A DNA stretch of 64,000 bases, taken from Gammaproteobacteria bacterium (GTDB lineage Bacteria; Pseudomonadota; Gammaproteobacteria; Steroidobacterales; UBA11654). This document shows, in pieces, positions 55,602 through 64,000 of the stretch; within the stretch, counting starts at the first letter, position 1; every line of letters starts with the position of its first letter. The notes below the pieces were generated by a model. It saw only the letters and a program-made list of their open reading frames with translations, was not told the origin of the DNA and made no database searches. The stretch is from NCBI GenBank assembly GCA_029244925.1, contig JAQWQE010000029.1, positions 24,749 to 88,748 on the forward strand. The letters are read 5' to 3'. A program made the position numbers and the translations under genes.

Positions 55602-56549
55602 TTAAATCTTTTTCTCTGTTCTTAAAAACTTGAAAAAACACCACGTAGAAAACGCAGATAAAATATGCCAAATACCATGCGGCTGAATCAAAGAATCTGG
55701 CTGACAGTAAGGTGTGTCTGGAACCCCCTGTAGCCAAATTATAAACGCAAATATATAAGAAAACATGCCCACAAAGAACCAAGGACTGTAGTTTCTTTTT
55801 TTCATGGGGTGGTTTGGCGACAAGGCTGCGGGAAGCCAAAACAAAATTATCCACCAGTATTCGATTAGGTTTGTGAAGATCTCTTGTGGCAAGATTCCAA
55901 AAACAGCTGCAACAAGAAAGCCGATAAAACCAGATGCCCACCTAAAGACGGGGGACCAGAAGCGAAACAGTGTTTCGGAAATAATCCACAATGCAATGGA
56001 GGTTCCAAACAGATCAAACCCAATACCAAGACTAGAGCCAAAAAACCAACTCAGCCCAGCAAAAGAAACAATGACTAATGTATATGTTTTAAAAAATTGT
56101 TGCTCGCTCCACCGACCCATTGCACTGACATTGATAAGCCAAGGCAGTGTGATGTAAACAACCATGCTGACATTATCAATCCACTGACCCCAATAAGTAT
56201 GTGTGCCGTGCATAAGCATAGAGCCTGGACCTAAAAAAAGAGCTGCCCCAGCATAAAGCTTTGCTATAGGTGTTAGCCCATGAAATTGATTGCTGTGTTG
56301 GGGCTTCTCCCCATCTTTGGTTAAAACAAAAAACATGCACAGACCTGCAAACATAAAGCCTAGATTTGATAGGGCGTTTACTGGCTCTCTAAAAATACCA
56401 TCACTGACTCTTTCACACCATCGAGATAAACCCCCAACCGTCATCCCTGGCTCCAAGGAAACCATATTGGTTAAAAAACCCAATAAAACATATGCCCCCA
56501 AAAAGACAGCGGACAGAGTTAGCGCAAGGTGAAATGGTTTCTGGTGCAT
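55602..56549 (-). CDS. Alkaline-ceramidase-like (CREST superfamily) 7-TM membrane hydrolase
   Basis: 315 aa and polytopic. WCERVSDGIFREPVNALSNLGFMF resembles the ceramidase N-terminal WCE...AE..NT.SN motif. Also MHGTHTYWGQWIDNVSM and a C-terminal H-x3-H (PHGIWHILSA). Confidence 0.6.
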   Translation of the reverse strand: MHQKPFHLALTLSAVFLGAYVLLGFLTNMVSLEPGMTVGGLSRWCERVSDGIFREPVNALSNLGFMFAGLCMFFVLTKDGEKPQHSNQFHGLTPIAKLYAGAALFLGPGSMLMHGTHTYWGQWIDNVSMVVYITLPWLINVSAMGRWSEQQFFKTYTLVIVSFAGLSWFFGSSLGIGFDLFGTSIALWIISETLFRFWSPVFRWASGFIGFLVAAVFGILPQEIFTNLIEYWWIILFWLPAALSPNHPMKKRNYSPWFFVGMFSYIFAFIIWLQGVPDTPYCQPDSLIQPHGIWHILSAFSTWCFFKFLRTEKKI

Positions 56550-56636
56550 ATAGGTTTTTATTTTCTCATATTTTCAATTAAACATAAAAAAACCAGCTAT
56601 TGATTAAAATAGATGGTTTTTATTTAATAATGAATT

Positions 56637-57350
56637 TTATTGTTCAGCAGAATAAAAAAGCTGGCATGATTCATATGTGTCTCTCACAACTTTATCAATA
56701 AGTGAGGATGCTTTAAGGTATTGTTGCCCCCATTCTGCGCCTGCAAAATACTCGTCTATCAGCCTGCCTGCCTCACTAGAGTTTGGAGAGACTCCTCGCA
56801 ATAAAAAAGTTCCTGTTTCATGAACACCTCCACCAAGCGGTTGGAAAACACCCATATTAAAATCATGGCCTGCATTTCTAATTGCTGCTTCTAACTTTGT
56901 TGCTGCAGCGATATAAGCGGGAACGTTTTCAGGTTTAATTTTTACACGTGTCACTCTTTCAAAGCCAGGGCTTAAAACAAATGGCTTTAGCGGCTTCCAT
57001 GCCACTCTATACTTAAGGGTTCTGAGTTTTGCCAATTCTTTTGATACTTCATCAAGGTCATAAGCTGTGGTTTCTTCCATGGCCCCTGTTACAGTAGAAT
57101 GGGCGCTCCAAACGAACATTTCTCCATTATAATCTTGGCCTGTTATGGTTACGCAAACACCGGCGGCGGCGGCATCAAATCCCCTAAAAAGCTCTGGGTT
57201 ATTTTTTAAATGCTTAATGTAGGCTGAGACGTCTGGTGCCTGAACCATAACCGTTGTAAAACTTCCTTCGCCAGGTCCAGAAAGATTATGGCCATCCGCA
57301 AAGGCGTAAAAGGGTAAGATTACAACCATGGATAAAATAAATTTCTTCAT
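56637..57350 (-). CDS. Secreted protein of unknown function with an internal duplication
   Basis: 237 aa. Signal peptide MKKFILSMVVILPFYAFA. Two ~100-aa halves share ...V.V.APDVSAYI... / ...VKIKPENVPAYI... and following G-rich strands. Confidence 0.5.
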   Translation of the reverse strand: MKKFILSMVVILPFYAFADGHNLSGPGEGSFTTVMVQAPDVSAYIKHLKNNPELFRGFDAAAAGVCVTITGQDYNGEMFVWSAHSTVTGAMEETTAYDLDEVSKELAKLRTLKYRVAWKPLKPFVLSPGFERVTRVKIKPENVPAYIAAATKLEAAIRNAGHDFNMGVFQPLGGGVHETGTFLLRGVSPNSSEAGRLIDEYFAGAEWGQQYLKASSLIDKVVRDTYESCQLFYSAEQ

Positions 57351-57420
57351 ATTGCTTCCTTATTTTTTATAATGTCATTATTAAATCATAGCGACATAAA
57401 AAATTCTTAAAAAGAATTTC

Positions 57421-58173
57421 TTGAGTGCTGGGCAGGTAACCAAAAACAATGCAGTCACACAATTAAAATCTATCATGAGGCAAATAATAGCTATAGGGGG
57501 TGGTGGTTTTGGCAGAACAACAAAATCAAAACTAATAGAAAATTATATTTTAAGACAATCGCCTGAAAAAAAGCCGAGTATTTGCTTTATCCCAACAGCT
57601 ACAGGTGATGCTGACCCCTATATTGAGAGCTTTTATGCTGTTTTCTCACAACTAAATTGTGTTCCTAGTCATATCGGTCTTTTTAAACGTACCATCAATC
57701 TTGAAGCTCATATTGAGAAGCAGAACATTGTGTTTGTTGGTGGTGGAAACACTAAAAGCATGTTGGCAGTATGGAAAGCTTGGGGCCTAGATAAAATTCT
57801 TAGGCGTGCCTATAAGAGAGGTGTTGTGATGTCTGGAGTGAGTGCTGGAGCAATCTGTTGGTTTGAAAATGGTTTAACTGACTCTTGGGAAGAGGGGTTA
57901 AAGCTCATGCCTTGCTTGGGTTTTGCTCCAGGTAGTTGTGCGCCTCATTATGATGAGGAGCCTGAAAGAAGGCCGGCAACAAAGCAGCTGCTTATCGGTG
58001 GTCGTATTTCTTCTATGTATGGAATTGAGGGTGGTGCTGCGCTTCATTTTATAAATGAAAAACCCATTAAAGCCGTTCAGTTTGAGAAAGAAAAACGCTC
58101 CTACCTAGTAACCCTTAAAAGCAATAAAACAAGTGACGAAAAACCACTTAGTCCTGAAAAAATAATTTACTAG
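57421..58173 (+). CDS. Peptidase S51 (dipeptidase E / cyanophycinase-like)
   Basis: 250 aa with a TTG start; the alternative is Met19 at 57475 (MRQIIAIGGGGF). VFVGGGNT and the nucleophile region MSGVSAGAICW. Confidence 0.75.
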   Translation: MSAGQVTKNNAVTQLKSIMRQIIAIGGGGFGRTTKSKLIENYILRQSPEKKPSICFIPTATGDADPYIESFYAVFSQLNCVPSHIGLFKRTINLEAHIEKQNIVFVGGGNTKSMLAVWKAWGLDKILRRAYKRGVVMSGVSAGAICWFENGLTDSWEEGLKLMPCLGFAPGSCAPHYDEEPERRPATKQLLIGGRISSMYGIEGGAALHFINEKPIKAVQFEKEKRSYLVTLKSNKTSDEKPLSPEKIIY

Positions 58174-58176
58174 TAG

Positions 58177-58413
58177 TTAGCTTTTTTTTGCTTTGTCTGT
58201 TTTTAAACCAAAATAGTTCTTTATCTTTGTTATCAGCTCAGGTCCCAATAAGAAAAAGCCTATAAAAAATGAAGTCCAGCTTGCTGCGTAAGCTATTGAG
58301 GTATATGTGGCTTTTTCCCCTAAAGAAAGCCCACTATTAAGGGCAATATAGCCCACCAAAGGGTAAACTAAAAACGACCCTATAAATAAAATTACACCAA
58401 CGCCTTGTTTCAT
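58177..58413 (-). CDS. Small two-TM membrane protein
   Basis: 78 aa with two hydrophobic segments and a Lys-rich tail. Last gene of the hydroxylase-methyltransferase string. Confidence 0.45.
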   Translation of the reverse strand: MKQGVGVILFIGSFLVYPLVGYIALNSGLSLGEKATYTSIAYAASWTSFFIGFFLLGPELITKIKNYFGLKTDKAKKS

Positions 58414-58439
58414 AGTTGACCTTTTAAAAACACAATTCT

Positions 58440-59072
58440 CTAACCCTTTCGCAACAAGACTACATCTTTACATGGGATCTCGCACCTCCAATTTCTTTGT
58501 GTTGCAATCACCTCAAAGGTTTTTTCTGAATAAAAGACCACATGGGTTGGGTCTCTTCTGTAATGCCAGTCTTCAAACGCATCTTTTGTTGTTAGAAAAC
58601 TGGTCATGATCCCCAGCCACCCCTGTGGGTTTAACAGACCACCTAAAATATCAAATTCTTTAGAGGGGTCAAAGAAATGCTCCGCGGTTTCAGTGCAAGC
58701 AATAAAGTCATACTGTTTAGAAAAAATAGTTTTGTTGGGAAAAAAGAATGGGTCATAAAGGTCTACATCAAAACCATCTGCGCTCAACATATCCGCAAGA
58801 GCAGGACCATGACCACAACCAAAGTCCAGACCTTTGCTGTTTGGTGATAGCTTTTCTTTTAATGGTATTGAAAGTCTTGAGAGAAAGGCTCTATAGTTTT
58901 CATCATTAACTTCATTGTTGTGCTCTAGGTAACGCTCTTTTTCTTCTGCCATGCTTATGTAGTGTTTTTTACCTAAGAATTTTGCAGAACAATTATCACA
59001 ATACCAATACTCCTTATTGTCTCTGGTTTTAAAAAGTTCTACTGACTTGCTTTTGCAAACAATGCATTTCAT
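58440..59072 (-). CDS. Class I SAM-dependent methyltransferase with an N-terminal zinc ribbon
   Basis: 210 aa. CIVC...CDNC and SAM motif I LDFGCGHGP. Confidence 0.8.
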   Translation of the reverse strand: MKCIVCKSKSVELFKTRDNKEYWYCDNCSAKFLGKKHYISMAEEKERYLEHNNEVNDENYRAFLSRLSIPLKEKLSPNSKGLDFGCGHGPALADMLSADGFDVDLYDPFFFPNKTIFSKQYDFIACTETAEHFFDPSKEFDILGGLLNPQGWLGIMTSFLTTKDAFEDWHYRRDPTHVVFYSEKTFEVIATQRNWRCEIPCKDVVLLRKG

Positions 59073-59074
59073 TC

Positions 59075-59908
59075 TTATCTTTTAGTATTTGGCGGTCCAA
59101 AAAAACAATATAAGCTCTCATTAAGGTATTGAGCCTCTCTAATGTCTTCTATTATTTCTTGCCAAGCCATAAAGGTTATTTTTACTGGGTTAAAGGTATT
59201 AACATTGCTTACCAAGCCATATTTTACAGGTTCTTTTTCTGGCTCAAATGTCCCAAACAACCGATCCCAAATGATAAATAAGTTTCCATAGTTTTTGTCG
59301 ATATAGGTTTCGTTTGCTCCATGGTGAACTCTATGATGGGACGGGGTATTAAAAACCCACTCTAGCGGTCCAAGTCTTCCAATGATTTGTGTGTGCCCAA
59401 CTATCCCCCATAAAGTGCTGACTACTCCGGCAACAGCTATAACTGTTGGGTCCAACCCAATTAATGGAAGCGCCATAAAGAAGGGAAGCTTGGCGACAGG
59501 ACCAAACCATGCTTGCCTAAAAGAAACCGCAAAATTCATCTCTTCGCTTGAGTGATGGCTCATATGAATTGCCCAAAGAAACCTGGTTCGATGCGACAGC
59601 CTATGAAAAAAATAAAATATAAAATCTATAGAAATAAAAGCTATGGTCCAGATAGCCCAAGTGGGTACAAAGGCGTTTAGGTCGAAAACCCTAAATTGGT
59701 ATAAATAAAAATGAAAGGCTAGTGTTGCCCCTTTTATTGCAAAAACCATAACAATGTTTCCAGCCAAAAGTCCGACTGTACATAAAGTGTCTTGTTTTTT
59801 ATAAAGGCCTTTGTTTTGCCAATTTGAAAGCAAGGCTTCGATAAAAATCATGCCCAAAACAATAGGAGCACCAATAAAATATGCCTGTGTGACGGTTAGT
59901 TCTGTCAT
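59075..59908 (-). CDS. Fatty acid hydroxylase / sterol desaturase superfamily membrane protein
   Basis: 277 aa. Three His boxes: HRLSHR, HMSHHSS and HHRVHH. Confidence 0.85.
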   Translation of the reverse strand: MTELTVTQAYFIGAPIVLGMIFIEALLSNWQNKGLYKKQDTLCTVGLLAGNIVMVFAIKGATLAFHFYLYQFRVFDLNAFVPTWAIWTIAFISIDFIFYFFHRLSHRTRFLWAIHMSHHSSEEMNFAVSFRQAWFGPVAKLPFFMALPLIGLDPTVIAVAGVVSTLWGIVGHTQIIGRLGPLEWVFNTPSHHRVHHGANETYIDKNYGNLFIIWDRLFGTFEPEKEPVKYGLVSNVNTFNPVKITFMAWQEIIEDIREAQYLNESLYCFFGPPNTKR

Positions 59909-60062
59909 TGTTTTAGTTTTTAATCTTCATTTTATTAGTTAGTCGGTAAGATTAGCATGAACGCGCTGTGCTTTCATTTTAGAGACAATGTTCTTAAAGA
60001 GTCTTCTCTTACTCCTTGTATTCTATTATCCTCAAGCTTAGATAAAACCCTATGGTCCAACA

Positions 60063-61370
60063 TTGAAGATAAGCAAAATAAATAAAACCTCATTTGATCG
60101 AATTAAAGAGCAGATCTTAGCTTCGCTTGAGAATGATTCTGGGCGGCAACAGTTTACTTTTTTAACCGGTGCTGCTGGCAATGGAAAAACCACTATGATT
60201 GAACGCATAAAAAAAGAATGTTCTCTTAAAAAGATGGTTGTTGCTCCCACTGGGATAGCTGCATTAAATATTGGTGGCAGCACAATTAACTCCGCTTTTA
60301 GGATTGGCTTTGACCTTTTCCCTGTTGTAAAAGAGTCTAAAGATCCTAGGTTTAAGGCTCTTTTAAAAAACCTAGAACTTTTGATTATTGATGAAATTTC
60401 AATGGTAAAGGCCCCAATGCTAGATGCAATATCAGATACTCTAAAGGTTCATCGTGGTTCTTCTGAGCCTTTTGGTGGCATTCATGTTTTGGTCTGTGGT
60501 GATTTATTTCAGTTGCCTCCCGTGGTTAAGAACCATGAAGAATCAGCAATATTTGAACGATATGACTCGGTTTATTTTTTTAGTTCAGATAGCTTTAAAG
60601 CCATTCAGTTGCCTTCTTTTTATGAGCTGACCGACTCTTTTAGGCAGAAAGATGATTCTGAATTTTATTCTTTACTGAATGATATTAGGTTGGGAGAAAA
60701 CCTGGACAGCTCTATTAAAAAAATCAACAAGGCCTGCTACAACCCTGAGTTTGAAACAGAATCATCGCTGGTTATTACCTCGAGAAAGTATAGGGCTGAA
60801 CAAATCAACAATGAAATGTTGCGGTTGGTTGAGGGGCCTTTGATTAAAACAAAAGCAAAAGAAACGGGTGACCTTAATGAGAATGACTTGCCAGCGCCAC
60901 GTGAACTGCATATAAAAAAAGATGCAAAAGTAATGTTTATTAAAAACGATAGTGAGGGTAGATGGGTTAATGGCACTGTAGGTGTGGTGAGCGAGTGTCT
61001 TGATAAAAAACAGTCATCTATCAAGGTTAAGGTTGGTAAAAAAACACATAAAGTAAAGCGTGAAGAATGGAACAAAATTAAATTTATATACGATGAAATC
61101 AATGATGAGATGGAAGAAATAGTGGTTTCATCCTTTAAACAATTTCCATTAAAACTTGGTTGGGCGGTTACAATTCACAAGGCTCAAGGCCTAACCTTAG
61201 AGAGCTGCTCTATTGACTTAGGTGATGGTGCTTTTGCAACAGGCCAAACCTATGTTGCATTGAGTCGCTGTAAAACCCTTGATGCTTTGAGCCTTTATAG
61301 AGAATTAAAAACGAAAGATGCTTTGGTGGACCCAGATATTCAAGCTTTTCACAAAGCCCGATTTCGTTAG
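60063..61370 (+). CDS. Pif1/RecD-like SF1B helicase
   Basis: 435 aa with a TTG start. Walker A GAAGNGKTT, IIDEISMV, CGDLFQLPPV and VTIHKAQGLTLE. Confidence 0.85.
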   Translation: MKISKINKTSFDRIKEQILASLENDSGRQQFTFLTGAAGNGKTTMIERIKKECSLKKMVVAPTGIAALNIGGSTINSAFRIGFDLFPVVKESKDPRFKALLKNLELLIIDEISMVKAPMLDAISDTLKVHRGSSEPFGGIHVLVCGDLFQLPPVVKNHEESAIFERYDSVYFFSSDSFKAIQLPSFYELTDSFRQKDDSEFYSLLNDIRLGENLDSSIKKINKACYNPEFETESSLVITSRKYRAEQINNEMLRLVEGPLIKTKAKETGDLNENDLPAPRELHIKKDAKVMFIKNDSEGRWVNGTVGVVSECLDKKQSSIKVKVGKKTHKVKREEWNKIKFIYDEINDEMEEIVVSSFKQFPLKLGWAVTIHKAQGLTLESCSIDLGDGAFATGQTYVALSRCKTLDALSLYRELKTKDALVDPDIQAFHKARFR

Positions 61371-61426
61371 CTCGTGGTTAAACAAGGCCCAACCAACCCT
61401 TGTTGGTGCGACTGTCTCTAAAAACA

Positions 61427-62794
61427 TTAGTTGGGTGCATAGGCTATTAGGTCCAATAAGGTATTTGCCCCTGGAACCACCAAAGGGCCGCCAAGACGAA
61501 TTGTTGTAGATGCCGGCTTGTCATCAGGAAAACAAGAAGCCCACTCCTCTATGGATTCTGCAAACCACTGAAAATCATCATGAAAACACACTCGCCGGCA
61601 AATATTATCAGTGGTTGTGCCTGCGGCTTTACAAATTGCATTGATGTTTTTCATCATATAGCGCATCTGTGCTTGGCCTGGTGAGCCATACCAAGGAAAA
61701 GAAGGATGACGAACCATACCTTCTGCTAAATTACCCGTTGAGTCAAATGCCATTTGGGTGCTGAAGAATAATAGATCGCCTGCCTTAACAGCCTGTGGTT
61801 CATGCCCAAGTGGTTGGGGAGCGTCTGGCGCTTCAATGGTTAGCGCTTTGGTTTTGCTGCGATTGGTTAGTAAGGTTAGCGCTATTTCTACTCGGCCTCC
61901 TGGTGTTCCCATACCCATGTAAGGTATTACAACGCGTGCTGGAGGGTTTTTTGGGAAGCGGCGTTTCCACACCCGGTCCATGGCTGCGAAATCCTTGGGG
62001 TGGCCGATATATACGTCTGCCTTTACCGCTTTGGCTAGAGATGAGCCCGCTGATTTGGCGTATGCTGATAACTTATCAAGAATATGCTCCGTTTGTCTTT
62101 CCACAGGGTCTTCATGCCATTGCATTGTGTTGTCATCTTCATAAAGGTCGGAGGCGTTTTCAGAAGCTAGAAACACCCAGTCCCCTCTTCTTATTCCTGC
62201 AGAGTGGCCTCCTGCTGCTTTAGCAATTCCCTTGGGCACTCTTATTTTTGTTGGTTTATTATTATCATTAAGACAAATCATATCTACTTCAAGGAGTGTT
62301 CCTAAACACAGTAGCTCACGAACCCCCAAATAAGAAGAAGGTGGGGCAGGCTTTTTTACTATTGTATCTCGCACATTCAGATATGGTTTTAAACTTATCT
62401 CAGGCCAGTTATCCCCCCAAGAAAAATCCTCCTCTGTGGGTTCGTCCGAAACAAGCCACTGCCACATACGGACCATGTGCTCATTAACATCACAACCACT
62501 CGCTTTAATGGTATTCGCAAGGTTTTTTAATACAAAGTTTGCCTGCAATGAAAGTTCGTTATCAAGGTAGTCATTAGCCGCCAATACCTCAGGTGCTAAC
62601 CCAGTCTGGAAATCACTTGCTATTTGTCCGGCAATAAATACCCAGTCTCCAGCTTTTATAGCGGGACTATAGGGCATTAATGGTTTTGGAACCCCTGCCT
62701 CGAGACCGGGCCATACTGCCTCTTTATTTTGTTTTATTTTTTTTATTGCTACTGTTTTTTTAGTGGTCTTTTTCGTCATTTTAGAGTCTCTCAA
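61427..62794 (-). CDS. Protein with three tandem RidA/YjgF/L-PSP-like modules
   Basis: 455-aa ORF with a TTG start; ATG Met6 at 62779 is more likely. Three repeats each contain a (Y/H)S.A(I/V)(K/R).GD.(V/L)F..(G/S)Q-type strand, a Q...(L/M).(N/K)(L/I) helix and a C-terminal (V/L)(E/D)(V/I/L) strand (details in findings). Confidence 0.7.
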   Translation of the reverse strand: MRDSKMTKKTTKKTVAIKKIKQNKEAVWPGLEAGVPKPLMPYSPAIKAGDWVFIAGQIASDFQTGLAPEVLAANDYLDNELSLQANFVLKNLANTIKASGCDVNEHMVRMWQWLVSDEPTEEDFSWGDNWPEISLKPYLNVRDTIVKKPAPPSSYLGVRELLCLGTLLEVDMICLNDNNKPTKIRVPKGIAKAAGGHSAGIRRGDWVFLASENASDLYEDDNTMQWHEDPVERQTEHILDKLSAYAKSAGSSLAKAVKADVYIGHPKDFAAMDRVWKRRFPKNPPARVVIPYMGMGTPGGRVEIALTLLTNRSKTKALTIEAPDAPQPLGHEPQAVKAGDLLFFSTQMAFDSTGNLAEGMVRHPSFPWYGSPGQAQMRYMMKNINAICKAAGTTTDNICRRVCFHDDFQWFAESIEEWASCFPDDKPASTTIRLGGPLVVPGANTLLDLIAYAPN

Positions 62795-62913
62795 TTTTGT
62801 TGTGTGTCCTGCAAAAAATGCGGGCGTAGTTTAATAATAGTATTGCTTTTTATAAAGTGGTAGACGGTTTGCTTGGTTGGGTTAAACATTACAAATGATA
62901 GTAATAATTATAT

Positions 62914-64000
62914 TTACGCTTGTACGACTTCAAATAACTCGCCTACAGCTCCACGCAATATAAACCCTGCAGGCTTGTCATCCAAAAGGTTGGGGAGCGC
63001 TCCCTCGCTAACAATTTCTATAGAGGCTTTGGCACACATGGTTCGGCACTTATCTAAATCATTAACTCGAAGTGTCAACATTGCAAGACCTGTTTTATCT
63101 AAGGAGCATGGGTAGATGGTGCCTGATTTCGCCTTCATTTCCCATACTTCAATACCAACATCGAGGCCAAGATTGCCCCAAAGAAAATAGGTCCCTGTAG
63201 GCGCGCCAATTAGCTCATTAACATTTTCTTGATAACACTCCATTTGTGACGTTCTCTTAATGCCAAATGCTTTTTTGAAAAAAGAATTCACAGGACGTTG
63301 ATCCAAGGTCGTTATGGAGGCGCTTCCAAAACCATTATGTAAACCGATAGAGCGCACAATTTTTTGATCGCTACGGATGCTAGCGGTAATAAACATTTGT
63401 TCGCCCCCTGGACCAAAAGGCGAGTAACTCATTGAGTCCACATCCATTCCCCACATCGTGTTACGGAAATAATAATAGCGTGGTGGTGATATGACAGGCG
63501 TATTTGCAGTAACCAGAGCGTGGTAGGATTCAGCCGGATCTCGTGTTCCGCCCTCAAGAACATAGAGTCCTGGATCATTGGGACCAGATTCCGGACGAGG
63601 CCTAATTGGACCTGCTCCAGGCGGTGCCTCAAGAATACGAACAACCTGGCTATTAATCCAGCCTGAATTAGGCATAGACAAAAGCACATGGCGGTGTCCT
63701 GCAAGACCCATGCCTTGCAAAGTGGTGGTGTTCTTTAAGACTGTATCGCTTTGAACCGTCATACCAATAACATCACGGTAAAAGACGACACTAGCATCCA
63801 CGTCCGATGACACTATTGTAAAAGTAACTACCTTTGCTTCTAGTGGGTTGGAGTCTAGCGGCGATCCAAAAACCTCCCCTGTCACCTCCTTTGTTGCGTT
63901 GGGTGTAGGCCTCCCTTTTATACTTGAGTCAGTCTCGGGGTGTGCTTGTGCGTGCTGTAAGGTTGGAATAGAAGTTGCAGCAGCCAGTGCGATTCCAGCT
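62914..64000 (-). CDS. Exported VOC-fold (glyoxalase/dioxygenase-like) protein, 5' end outside window
   Basis: The ORF-track start (GTG 63885) has no upstream stop. The frame stays open to 64000 and reads ...AGIALAAATSIPTLQHAQAHPETD..., a signal-peptide-like stretch. VOC-type modules begin VTFTIVSSDVDASVVFYRDVIGMTV and SASITTLDQRPVNSFFKKAFGI. Confidence 0.6.
   Translation of the reverse strand, partial: AGIALAAATSIPTLQHAQAHPETDSSIKGRPTPNATKEVTGEVFGSPLDSNPLEAKVVTFTIVSSDVDASVVFYRDVIGMTVQSDTVLKNTTTLQGMGLAGHRHVLLSMPNSGWINSQVVRILEAPPGAGPIRPRPESGPNDPGLYVLEGGTRDPAESYHALVTANTPVISPPRYYYFRNTMWGMDVDSMSYSPFGPGGEQMFITASIRSDQKIVRSIGLHNGFGSASITTLDQRPVNSFFKKAFGIKRTSQMECYQENVNELIGAPTGTYFLWGNLGLDVGIEVWEMKAKSGTIYPCSLDKTGLAMLTLRVNDLDKCRTMCAKASIEIVSEGALPNLLDDKPAGFILRGAVGELFEVVQA

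Follow-up and report, generated by a model that had tools for sequence, protein, structure and literature searches.

Domain architecture and residue anatomy of the 3x-RidA protein

Rid proteins are ubiquitous, and most of their paralogues have no assigned role. The window (the whole stretch of gammaproteobacterial DNA analysed here, 64,000 nucleotides) encodes one in which three tandem RidA/YjgF modules are fused into a single polypeptide, referred to below as 3x-RidA, and the question raised by this locus is what such a fused trimer does when its middle module alone keeps the arginine motif. The best explanation, held with a confidence only a little better than even, is an imine/enamine-type hydrolase with one Arg pocket in a covalent pseudo-trimer, where the arginine (Arg282) belongs to module 2 (M2) and is likely to face module 3 (M3) rather than module 1 (M1). 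What was computed directly comprises the architecture, the predicted fold, the pattern of residues with their conservation and covariation, and the gene neighbourhoods described below.

Pfam PF01042 (Ribonuc_L-PSP) matches the protein in three stretches (129.6 bits in total), which is the number expected of a profile scan in the preliminary description of this DNA, where three modules had been read from the sequence. Each module taken in isolation scores well above chance and above the gathering cut-off of 27.3 bits (Table 2), while the scan of the whole protein at E <= 1 returns PF01042 only, with no chorismatase-specific domain. The identity among the three modules, and of each of them to E. 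coli RidA, is about 20-21 %. The canonical positions were mapped with an iterated hidden Markov model (HMM) seeded by E. coli RidA, over all proteins collected (Table 1).

Table 1. Residues of the three modules at the canonical positions of E. coli RidA
E. coli RidA	Module 1	Module 2	Module 3
Tyr17	Tyr37	His192	Glu327 (61799-61801)
Ser30	Ala50	Ala205	Ser340
Gly31	Gly51	Ser206	Thr341
Asn56	Asn86	Lys236	Asn378
Asn88	Leu134	Asp268	Ile410
Arg105	Ser148 (first S of P-P-S-S)	Arg282 (P-A-R)	Ser424 (P-A-S-T-T)
Pro114	Leu	Gly	Val434
Glu120	Glu164	Glu298	Leu441

M1 retains the 'Glu-side' residues Tyr37, Gly51, Asn86 and Glu164, has Ser148 at the Arg position, and carries an insertion of about 25 residues ahead of its PPSS motif; Y37, G51 and E164 are invariant, and the Tyr/Gly/Asn/Glu set as a whole is invariant or near-invariant. 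M2 is the sole module with Pro-Ala-Arg (P280, A281 and R282; Arg codon CGC at 61934-61936), as had been noticed from the sequence, and all three residues are invariant in the 75-sequence alignment of the family. Sequence alignments with PDB entries pair its 'pparv' with 'KPARV', while its own Glu side is partly decayed (His192, Ser206, Lys236 and Glu298). M3 has no Arg and contains Ser424-Thr425-Thr426 (61502-61510) in its place; its Glu side is remodelled, with Asn378 kept and an invariant Asp443 two residues beyond Leu441, and R357, Y364, R395, R396, C398 and H400 are its other invariant polar residues. It is the most conserved module, holding 30 of the 58 invariant columns of the same alignment.

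No single module has the complete pocket signature (Tyr17, Gly31, Asn56, Asn88, Arg105, Pro114 and Glu120). For the NCBIfam model TIGR00004 ('Rid family detoxifying hydrolase'), the score of 119.1 bits exceeds the cut-off of 106.25, a value that is summed over three partial stretches only, while NF008490 (enamine/imine deaminase equivalog) stays below its cut-off (43.1 vs 222).

Predicted fold and structural matches

The AlphaFold2 (AF2) model of the window protein, built on 75 homologues, has a mean predicted local distance difference test score (pLDDT) of 92.1 and a predicted template modelling score (pTM) of 0.92. It is confident except for about the first 20 residues, and its secondary structure gives linkers of about 6 residues between the modules. 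As the pTM is high, the prediction extends to how the three modules pack against one another, beyond the fold of each module alone.

The best full-length matches found by Foldseek in the PDB are the chorismatases 5a3k, 5ag3 and 4bps (390-398 columns, E 1e-12 to 3e-11, 10-12 % identity), with template modelling (TM) scores of 0.57-0.61 when normalised to the target (332 aa) and of 0.59-0.61 over about 398 columns for the top three. Next come dozens of monomeric chains of RidA, RutC and UK114, which match one module each at TM 0.85-0.90. The PDB entries matched by sequence are without exception RidA/YjgF chains of monomer size (<=165 aa), again with one module per match, and no solved 3x-RidA structure was found in the PDB copy searched by sequence and by structure. 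As judged from the pTM and the Foldseek matches, the three modules are predicted to form a compact covalent pseudo-trimer, in line with the earlier proposal for this protein and with the chorismate-mutase-like beta-alpha-beta-alpha-beta(2) fold and trimer-like barrel of the Rid/YjgF/YER057c/UK114 superfamily.

Partner module of the Arg282 pocket

The pocket of RidA is built from two chains, where Asn88 and Arg105 come from one chain and Tyr17, Gly31, Asn56, Pro114 and Glu120 from its neighbour (PMC12218379), and Glu120 forms a bond with residue 107 that spans the interface between subunits (PMC1884159). Arg282 therefore needs a wall from either M1 or M3. Covariation, concordance of conservation and the analogy with chorismatases make M3 the likely partner.

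Among 92 representatives, loss of the M2 Arg tracks loss of Glu17 (39/65 vs 2/27, p = 1.9e-6) and of Asn56 (38/65 vs 3/27, p = 2.4e-5) in M3, while no association with the Tyr, Gly, Asn or Glu of M1 was found in the same set (all p > 0.2). The entropies of the half-sites, given as Arg side/Glu side, are 0.20/0.28 bits for M2/M3, 0.14/0.46 bits for M3/M1 and 1.24/1.10 bits for M1/M2, so that half-site conservation is concordant under the M2/M3 pairing only (r = +0.96 vs -0.71 for the alternative); the concordance has the same sign in 55 distant S-R-S representatives. The set of pockets that follows from the M2/M3 pairing would also account for M3 being the most conserved module.

The active site of the chorismatase FkbO reportedly lies between the central and C-terminal domains. 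As the linkers are short, the same handedness is expected of all such fusions. In the chorismatase Hyg5, the C-terminal domain carries the essential acid, Glu-334, on its last strand (PMC7170507).

The alternative is a classical single site, in which Arg282 would face Tyr37, Gly51, Asn86 and Glu164 of M1 to form one ordinary imine/2-aminoacrylate deaminase site, the other clefts being dead and M3 mainly a scaffold. Several observations count in its favour. M1 keeps all four canonical Glu-side residues, precisely those that Arg282 would need for a perfect classical site, and a canonical Glu side appears in M3 only where M1 has an Arg (6/12 vs 0/80), both of which also speak against a pocket shared with M3; the classical site is the most parsimonious pattern of decay from an (R,R,R) ancestor; and TIGR00004 is matched above its cut-off. 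Moreover, the covariation is driven by one or few clades (27 Arg-less representatives), so that the p-values overstate independence owing to phylogenetic non-independence. A classical site, however, does not account for the loss of the M2 Arg leaving the M1 residues unrelaxed while tracking Glu17 and Asn56 of M3, would go with discordant half-site conservation (the negative r above), leaves the most conserved module without a role, and runs counter to the chorismatase analogy, which puts the site at the central/C-terminal cleft. The single canonical site of Arg282 with M1 was downgraded after the covariation and conservation-concordance tests, and is regarded here as a doubtful reading that still deserves to be taken seriously.

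With Arg282 facing M3, there would be no fully canonical RidA pocket, and probably none of the pockets of the window protein is one. The preliminary description had allowed for at most one canonical site: the single Arg pocket stands, while 'canonical' is probably too generous and does not apply if Arg282 faces Glu327, Thr341, Asn378, Val434 and Leu441.

Distribution of the family and origin of the triplication

Full-length homologues (430-490 aa, 54-99 % identity) number more than 559, and clustering at 50 % gives 119 clusters with E < 1e-30, of which many have lengths of 410-470 aa, with identity down to about 28 %. At least 145 reference genomes carry a homologue, and both complete chromosomes and cultured strains are represented. 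As read from the best 80 of these genomes, the carriers comprise Gammaproteobacteria (Porticoccaceae, Woeseiaceae, Steroidobacteraceae and Halieaceae), Alphaproteobacteria (Rhodospirillaceae, Sphingomonadales, Hyphomonadaceae and Acetobacteraceae), Actinomycetota, Marinimicrobia and Akkermansiaceae. The family is frequently found across Proteobacteria, Actinomycetota and further phyla, for the most part in environmental metagenome-assembled genomes (MAGs), marine ones among them, and its members are labelled 'RidA family protein' or 'enamine deaminase RidA' in the databases.

The triplet of residues at the Arg position is (S,R,S) in 110 of the 211 three-domain proteins and (R,R,R) in only 5, and Arg is confined to the middle module in the majority of the other patterns too. 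When distant members are compared with this family, the same-numbered module is the most similar one for M1 in 63, for M2 in 86 and for M3 in 78 of 91 cases, and this positional orthology implies one old triplication that was followed by specialisation of the modules. The low identity among the modules, together with the failure to find any DNA-level repeat among the three in the window gene, indicates that the triplication is ancient. The sequences thus point to a single ancient triplication behind the asymmetric 3x-RidA family.

Two minor types stand apart from the (S,R,S) pattern. The rare symmetric (R,R,R) proteins (P0153, P0175, P0177, P0216 and P0252) have no positional orthology to the asymmetric family, and P0153 has the full Tyr/Gly/Asn/Asp/Arg/Glu signature in each module; by their sequences, these proteins may have arisen by a triplication of their own or may preserve the ancestral state. 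A sub-lineage of 27 representatives (P0136, P0161, P0162, P0192 and others) has mostly Thr or Leu in place of the M2 Arg and is also without Glu17 and Asn56 of M3, and these proteins, which have no Arg-bearing pocket, are still about 410-460 aa long and conserved.

Genomic neighbourhoods of the relatives

The neighbourhoods of 90 loci (the window and 89 related loci) were scored by tblastn of family representatives. An NAD(P) oxidoreductase gene lies within 200 bp of 3x-RidA and on the same strand at 53 of the 90 loci (NAD_binding_2 at 40, SDR at 13). Within 8 kb are found CocE/NonD hydrolase (51 loci), amidohydrolase (33), luciferase-like monooxygenase (28), alpha/beta-hydrolase (24), Asp/Glu-racemase-like protein (19), isochorismatase (18) and flavin reductase (9). 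In most relatives 3x-RidA is the first gene of an operon that includes a beta-hydroxyacid dehydrogenase and a CocE/NonD hydrolase, and genes for a luciferase-like monooxygenase, a PcaD-like hydrolase and a flavin reductase often lie opposite. The commonest gene order is 3x-RidA, beta-hydroxyacid dehydrogenase, CocE/NonD hydrolase, in some cases a racemase-like gene and in some a second dehydrogenase, with LysR/luciferase-like monooxygenase, alpha/beta-hydrolase and flavin reductase genes arranged divergently from this operon. The dehydrogenase partner is of the beta-hydroxyacid type and shows the catalytic-lysine motif GxGxxxKLxxN. The alpha/beta-hydrolase is closest to the enol-lactonase PcaD (248.3 vs a cut-off of 255.85).

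Orthology of this operon with the Rut system was considered and rejected, since the RutD and RutF models score 99.9 vs 238.5 and 67.4 vs 254.75, respectively, RutC also stays far below its cut-off (77 vs 169.1), RutA has no match, and the alpha/beta-hydrolase is nearest to PcaD. A tblastn search of PLSDB for a plasmid-borne, annotated catabolic context returned nothing at E <= 1e-20.

Proposed function

From this evidence we infer the module pairing, the substrate class and the chemistry of 3x-RidA. Its function, as read from sequence, is most likely that of a single-site, Arg-dependent hydrolase/tautomerase acting on an imine/enamine-type carboxylate of a catabolic pathway. The three anciently triplicated Rid domains in one chain would stand in for the homotrimer, with three inter-module clefts that would have diverged from one another. 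Cleft 1 would hold the sole Arg282 and Asp268 opposite Glu327, Ser340-Thr341-Gln342, Asn378 and Leu441 with Asp443; the conserved cleft 2 would set Ser424-Thr425-Thr426 of M3 against Tyr37, Gly51, Asn86 and Glu164 of M1; and cleft 3, between M1 and M2, would be decaying. Arg282 may anchor the carboxylate of a small alpha-substituted acid, while water may be placed or activated by Glu327, Asp443 and Asn378, and an imine/enamine-type intermediate would be hydrolysed or tautomerised with acid/base assistance to an oxo-acid or semialdehyde. Reduction of such a product by the partner beta-hydroxyacid dehydrogenase would fit this scheme. As the gene stands in an operon with catabolic-type genes in the relatives, its task is probably in a dedicated catabolic pathway and not in the housekeeping removal of 2-aminoacrylate. 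The window copy, like L009-L011, is a paralogue that has left the operon with every conserved pocket residue kept. Arg105 is the only essential residue of S. enterica RidA (PMC12218379), so that a remodelled wall alone does not exclude imine hydrolysis.

Two results from the neighbourhoods weigh against the proposed imine/enamine-type hydrolase. The operon partners of the relatives are not Rut orthologues, so the Rut models do not assign the pathway, and tblastn found no operon partners across the 64 kb of the window. The physiological role of the window copy may consequently differ from that of its operon-encoded relatives.

The same neighbourhoods, and the structural matches, also bear on the proposal that the RidA fold has taken up new chemistry here, as in chorismatases. 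The Arg282/Glu327/Asp443 pocket, or the one formed by Ser-Thr-Thr and Tyr-Gly-Asn-Glu, would then catalyse a reaction different from C=N hydrolysis, with a pathway carboxylate as the substrate, the candidates being a lyase, an isomerase, a decarboxylase or an enol-ether/ester hydrolase. The best global structural matches are indeed chorismatases, the two conserved clefts are both non-canonical under the favoured pairing, and among the operon partners, which comprise hydrolases, a flavin monooxygenase and dehydrogenases, no enzyme dependent on pyridoxal phosphate or flavin adenine dinucleotide stands out as a source of imines. Yet identity to the chorismatases is only 10-12 %, none of their specific Pfam domains is present, and the M3 equivalent of Glu120, which is the position of the chorismatase catalytic Glu, is Leu441. 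The arginine with carboxylate-binding geometry is, moreover, typical of characterised Rid deaminases, all of which use it to our knowledge, and a departure from C=N chemistry is considered unlikely.

A bolder proposal, which is rather doubtful at present, takes the asymmetric (Ser,Arg,Ser) 3x-RidA proteins as a distinct enzyme family, in which fusion of the trimer would have let the clefts specialise into the Arg282/Glu327/Asp443 pocket and the one of Ser-Thr-Thr and Tyr-Gly-Asn-Glu, the two together running a reaction, or two coupled steps, new for Rid proteins. The reaction would belong to a widespread, undescribed catabolic pathway with the luciferase-like monooxygenase, the CocE/NonD hydrolase and the beta-hydroxyacid dehydrogenase, while in one clade the basic N-terminal tail would tether the enzyme to a polyanion.

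Basic N-terminal tail

The Lys-rich tail ahead of M1, already pointed out in the preliminary description, is predicted to be disordered (Table 2). The relatives at >=77 % identity (P0001-P0023) have tails of 16-55 aa with mostly 7-26 Lys and Arg and 0-4 Asp and Glu residues, with AKKx/TKKx repeats; their composition is conserved and their sequence is not, in AT-rich and GC-rich genomes alike. The N-termini of clades at <=70 % identity are mostly short and non-basic. Judged by its residues, the tail of the >=77 % clade is histone-H1-like, on a predicted metabolic enzyme.

Such a tail is what a mainly non-catalytic protein might carry, either a ligand sensor or binder or a factor associated with nucleic acid or another polyanion. 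This reading echoes the old reports of an 'L-PSP endoribonuclease / translation inhibitor'. In its favour, the composition of the tail is kept across the >=77 % clade, and metabolic operon partners are absent around the window copy. Most of the family, however, is without the tail, while invariance of the pocket residues holds for all of it; catabolic operons contain the majority of the members; and the operon-embedded P0006 and P0012 are tailed as well. A non-catalytic role is accordingly held to be very improbable.

Gene structure and surroundings in the window

The peptide strings quoted in the preliminary description are all present in a 455-codon open reading frame (ORF) on the minus strand (61427..62794), a strand that this description had left unnamed, while the plus-strand frame of the same interval is riddled with stops. 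ATG 62779 is the probable start, giving a 450-aa protein that begins MTKKTTKK, since a GAGAG motif is located about 10 nt upstream and the homologue P0001, which is 99 % identical to the window protein, also has 450 aa; TTG at 62794 is a less likely alternative. The consensus scan that gave the terminator-like hairpin found 1 instance vs 2.4 expected, and the hairpin is a pattern match only.

Table 2. Positions of 3x-RidA, its parts and adjacent features in the window
Feature	Coordinates	Strand	Description	Basis
3x-RidA gene	61427..62779	minus	ATG at 62779, 450 codons, stop codon 61427-61429	ORF list; three PF01042 stretches
Disordered Lys-rich tail	62714..62779	minus	residues 1-22 (MTKKTTKKTVAIKKIKQNKEAV, 8 Lys)	pLDDT 50-63
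Module 1	62267..62698	minus	residues 28-171	Pfam 40.5 bits alone; HMM mapping
Module 2	61871..62236	minus	residues 182-303	Pfam 56.0 bits alone
Module 3	61439..61840	minus	residues 314-447	Pfam 44.7 bits alone; HMM mapping
Terminator-like hairpin (weak)	61389..61406	minus	about 20 nt past the 3x-RidA stop, before the convergent PIF1-like helicase gene	consensus scan
VOC/glyoxalase-fold gene	62914-64000, on past the window end	minus	134-bp gap upstream of 3x-RidA; L009:2613-3773, 386 aa	

The window gene is real and intact, and is an ordinary member of its family that stands outside the operon. The possibility that a frameshift or an assembly error has fused three separate RidA genes, which the preliminary description had named as a reason to abandon its reading, is practically negligible: nothing was found in its favour, the reading frame is unbroken, identity between the modules is as low as about 20 %, the inter-module linkers are short and conserved, and the inter-domain packing is confidently predicted. 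Such an artefact is excluded by the more than 559 full-length homologues, which come from independent assemblies, complete chromosomes among them.

The neighbours of 3x-RidA in the window suggest no pathway. A convergent PIF1-like helicase gene lies downstream, and fatty-acid hydroxylase, methyltransferase, peptidase S51 and ceramidase-like genes are located farther along; no second Rid-domain gene was found in the 64 kb. The VOC/glyoxalase-fold gene has no NCBIfam match, and its N-terminus is signal-peptide-like (...AGIALAAATSIPTLQHAQA followed by HPETD), so that the product looks secreted. It was rejected as a functional partner because of this N-terminus and because the linkage is confined to the window and the 99 % identical L009, being absent from L010, L011 and the other loci.

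The sub-clade formed by the window, L009, L010 and L011 (>=89 % identity) is syntenic and has lost all operon partners. The region 55602-61370 of the window carries a loose lipid-related group (ceramidase-like, fatty-acid hydroxylase and methyltransferase genes) and the PIF1-like helicase gene beside 3x-RidA, an arrangement that is conserved in L009-L011, with an additional fatty-acid desaturase gene in L009. L010 (JAAZYG010000001.1, labelled 'Candidatus Uhrbacteria bacterium') is a 7.4-kb contig that is syntenic over the fatty-acid hydroxylase, PIF1 helicase and 3x-RidA genes, with 89-91 % protein identity to the window for the helicase and 3x-RidA, and its assignment to the candidate phyla radiation is probably a binning error.

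Two genomes hold two 3x-RidA paralogues each. The MAG Gammaproteobacteria bacterium cluster2_bin.70 has the orphan L011 (89 % to the window protein) and L081 in a full operon (51 %), while Porticoccaceae SI054_bin69 has L018, followed by an isochorismatase gene (79 %), and L036 in an operon (61 %).

The stretch 61050-64000, which contains 3x-RidA and the VOC gene, is the most GC-rich of the window (45-47 % vs a mean of 37.7 %, sd 2.7) and falls in the top 0.5 % of 1350-bp windows by GC, while GC at third codon positions (GC3) is only modestly raised. The nearest relatives beyond the sub-clade (80-84 % identity) are found in Rhodospirillaceae MAGs, which hints at horizontal acquisition of the window gene.

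Comparison with known systems

The preliminary description knew of no characterised example, but the architecture had already been named '3x-RidA' by Niehaus et al. 2015 (BMC Genomics 16:382, PMC4433059), who described 'presumably covalently linked trimer units'. Their table lists a single 3x-RidA for each of three strains, Novosphingobium sp. PP1Y, Sphingomonas wittichii RW1 and E. faecalis V583, the example being EF_0115 of Enterococcus faecalis V583 (PMC4433059). The window protein agrees with this class in having three tandem Rid domains in one polypeptide of about 400-480 aa, and sphingomonad homologues at about 50-53 % identity (L060, L084, L086 and L088) belong to genera tabulated there. 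The class was filed under the RidA subfamily (PMC4433059), whereas the modules of the window protein are singly without the full RidA signature, and that study gives no per-module residues, structure, neighbourhood or assay for 3x-RidA.

In the literature searched for a characterised tandem, fused or triple RidA, or for its operon, only Niehaus 2015 was found, and neither there nor elsewhere in that literature is there a description of the asymmetry between modules, of the pocket that is likely to be remodelled, of the operon or of the tail. The architecture and its interpretation as a trimer are thus already known, while the indicated pocket of Arg282 and M3, the operon linkage and the basic tail of the >=77 % clade appear to be new.

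A fused trimer is a natural experiment, where covalent linkage of the subunits lets each cleft evolve separately, and in 3x-RidA the outcome would be one Arg left, one partner wall rebuilt and one cleft decaying, which parallels the way chorismatases have come out of this fold. Members of the family are closely tied to a catabolic operon, and their substrate, if found, would provide a function for hundreds of genes labelled 'RidA family protein' and could reveal a new degradation pathway.

Chorismatases are biochemically characterised single-chain RidA-like pseudo-trimers with one active site, and thus a further precedent that the preliminary description had not taken into account; they are reportedly monomers with RidA-like pseudo-3-fold symmetry. 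FkbO, Hyg5 and XanB2 (4bps, 5a3k and 5ag3) are single chains and the best full-length structural matches to the 3x-RidA model. They are about 330-340 aa long and only their C-terminal domain is YjgF-like by sequence, whereas the window protein has three clean PF01042 domains. Their essential acid is located on the C-terminal domain (Hyg5 Glu-334, PMC7170507), while M3 of the window protein has Leu441 at the Glu120 equivalent and an invariant Asp443. The context of the 3x-RidA relatives is catabolic, in contrast to the polyketide, ubiquinone or xanthomonadin biosynthesis of chorismatases.

The homotrimeric RidA/TdcF/YjgF proteins (1QU9 and 2UYK) have the same domain fold as each module (TM 0.85-0.90), and share with 3x-RidA the Pro-Ala-Arg carboxylate-binding motif, here in M2, and pockets at the clefts between subunits or modules. 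A canonical RidA trimer has three identical sites, whereas the window protein has one Arg in total and clefts that are all different. RutC is matched by M2 in part (77 bits), below the TIGR03610 cut-off of 169.1. The operon of the relatives resembles the Rut operon in combining a Rid protein with a luciferase-like monooxygenase dependent on flavin mononucleotide (FMN), an alpha/beta-hydrolase, a flavin reductase and a reductase whose product substrate is of the semialdehyde type, but differs from it in that the partners are not RutA, RutD or RutF orthologues, and the window contains no such genes.

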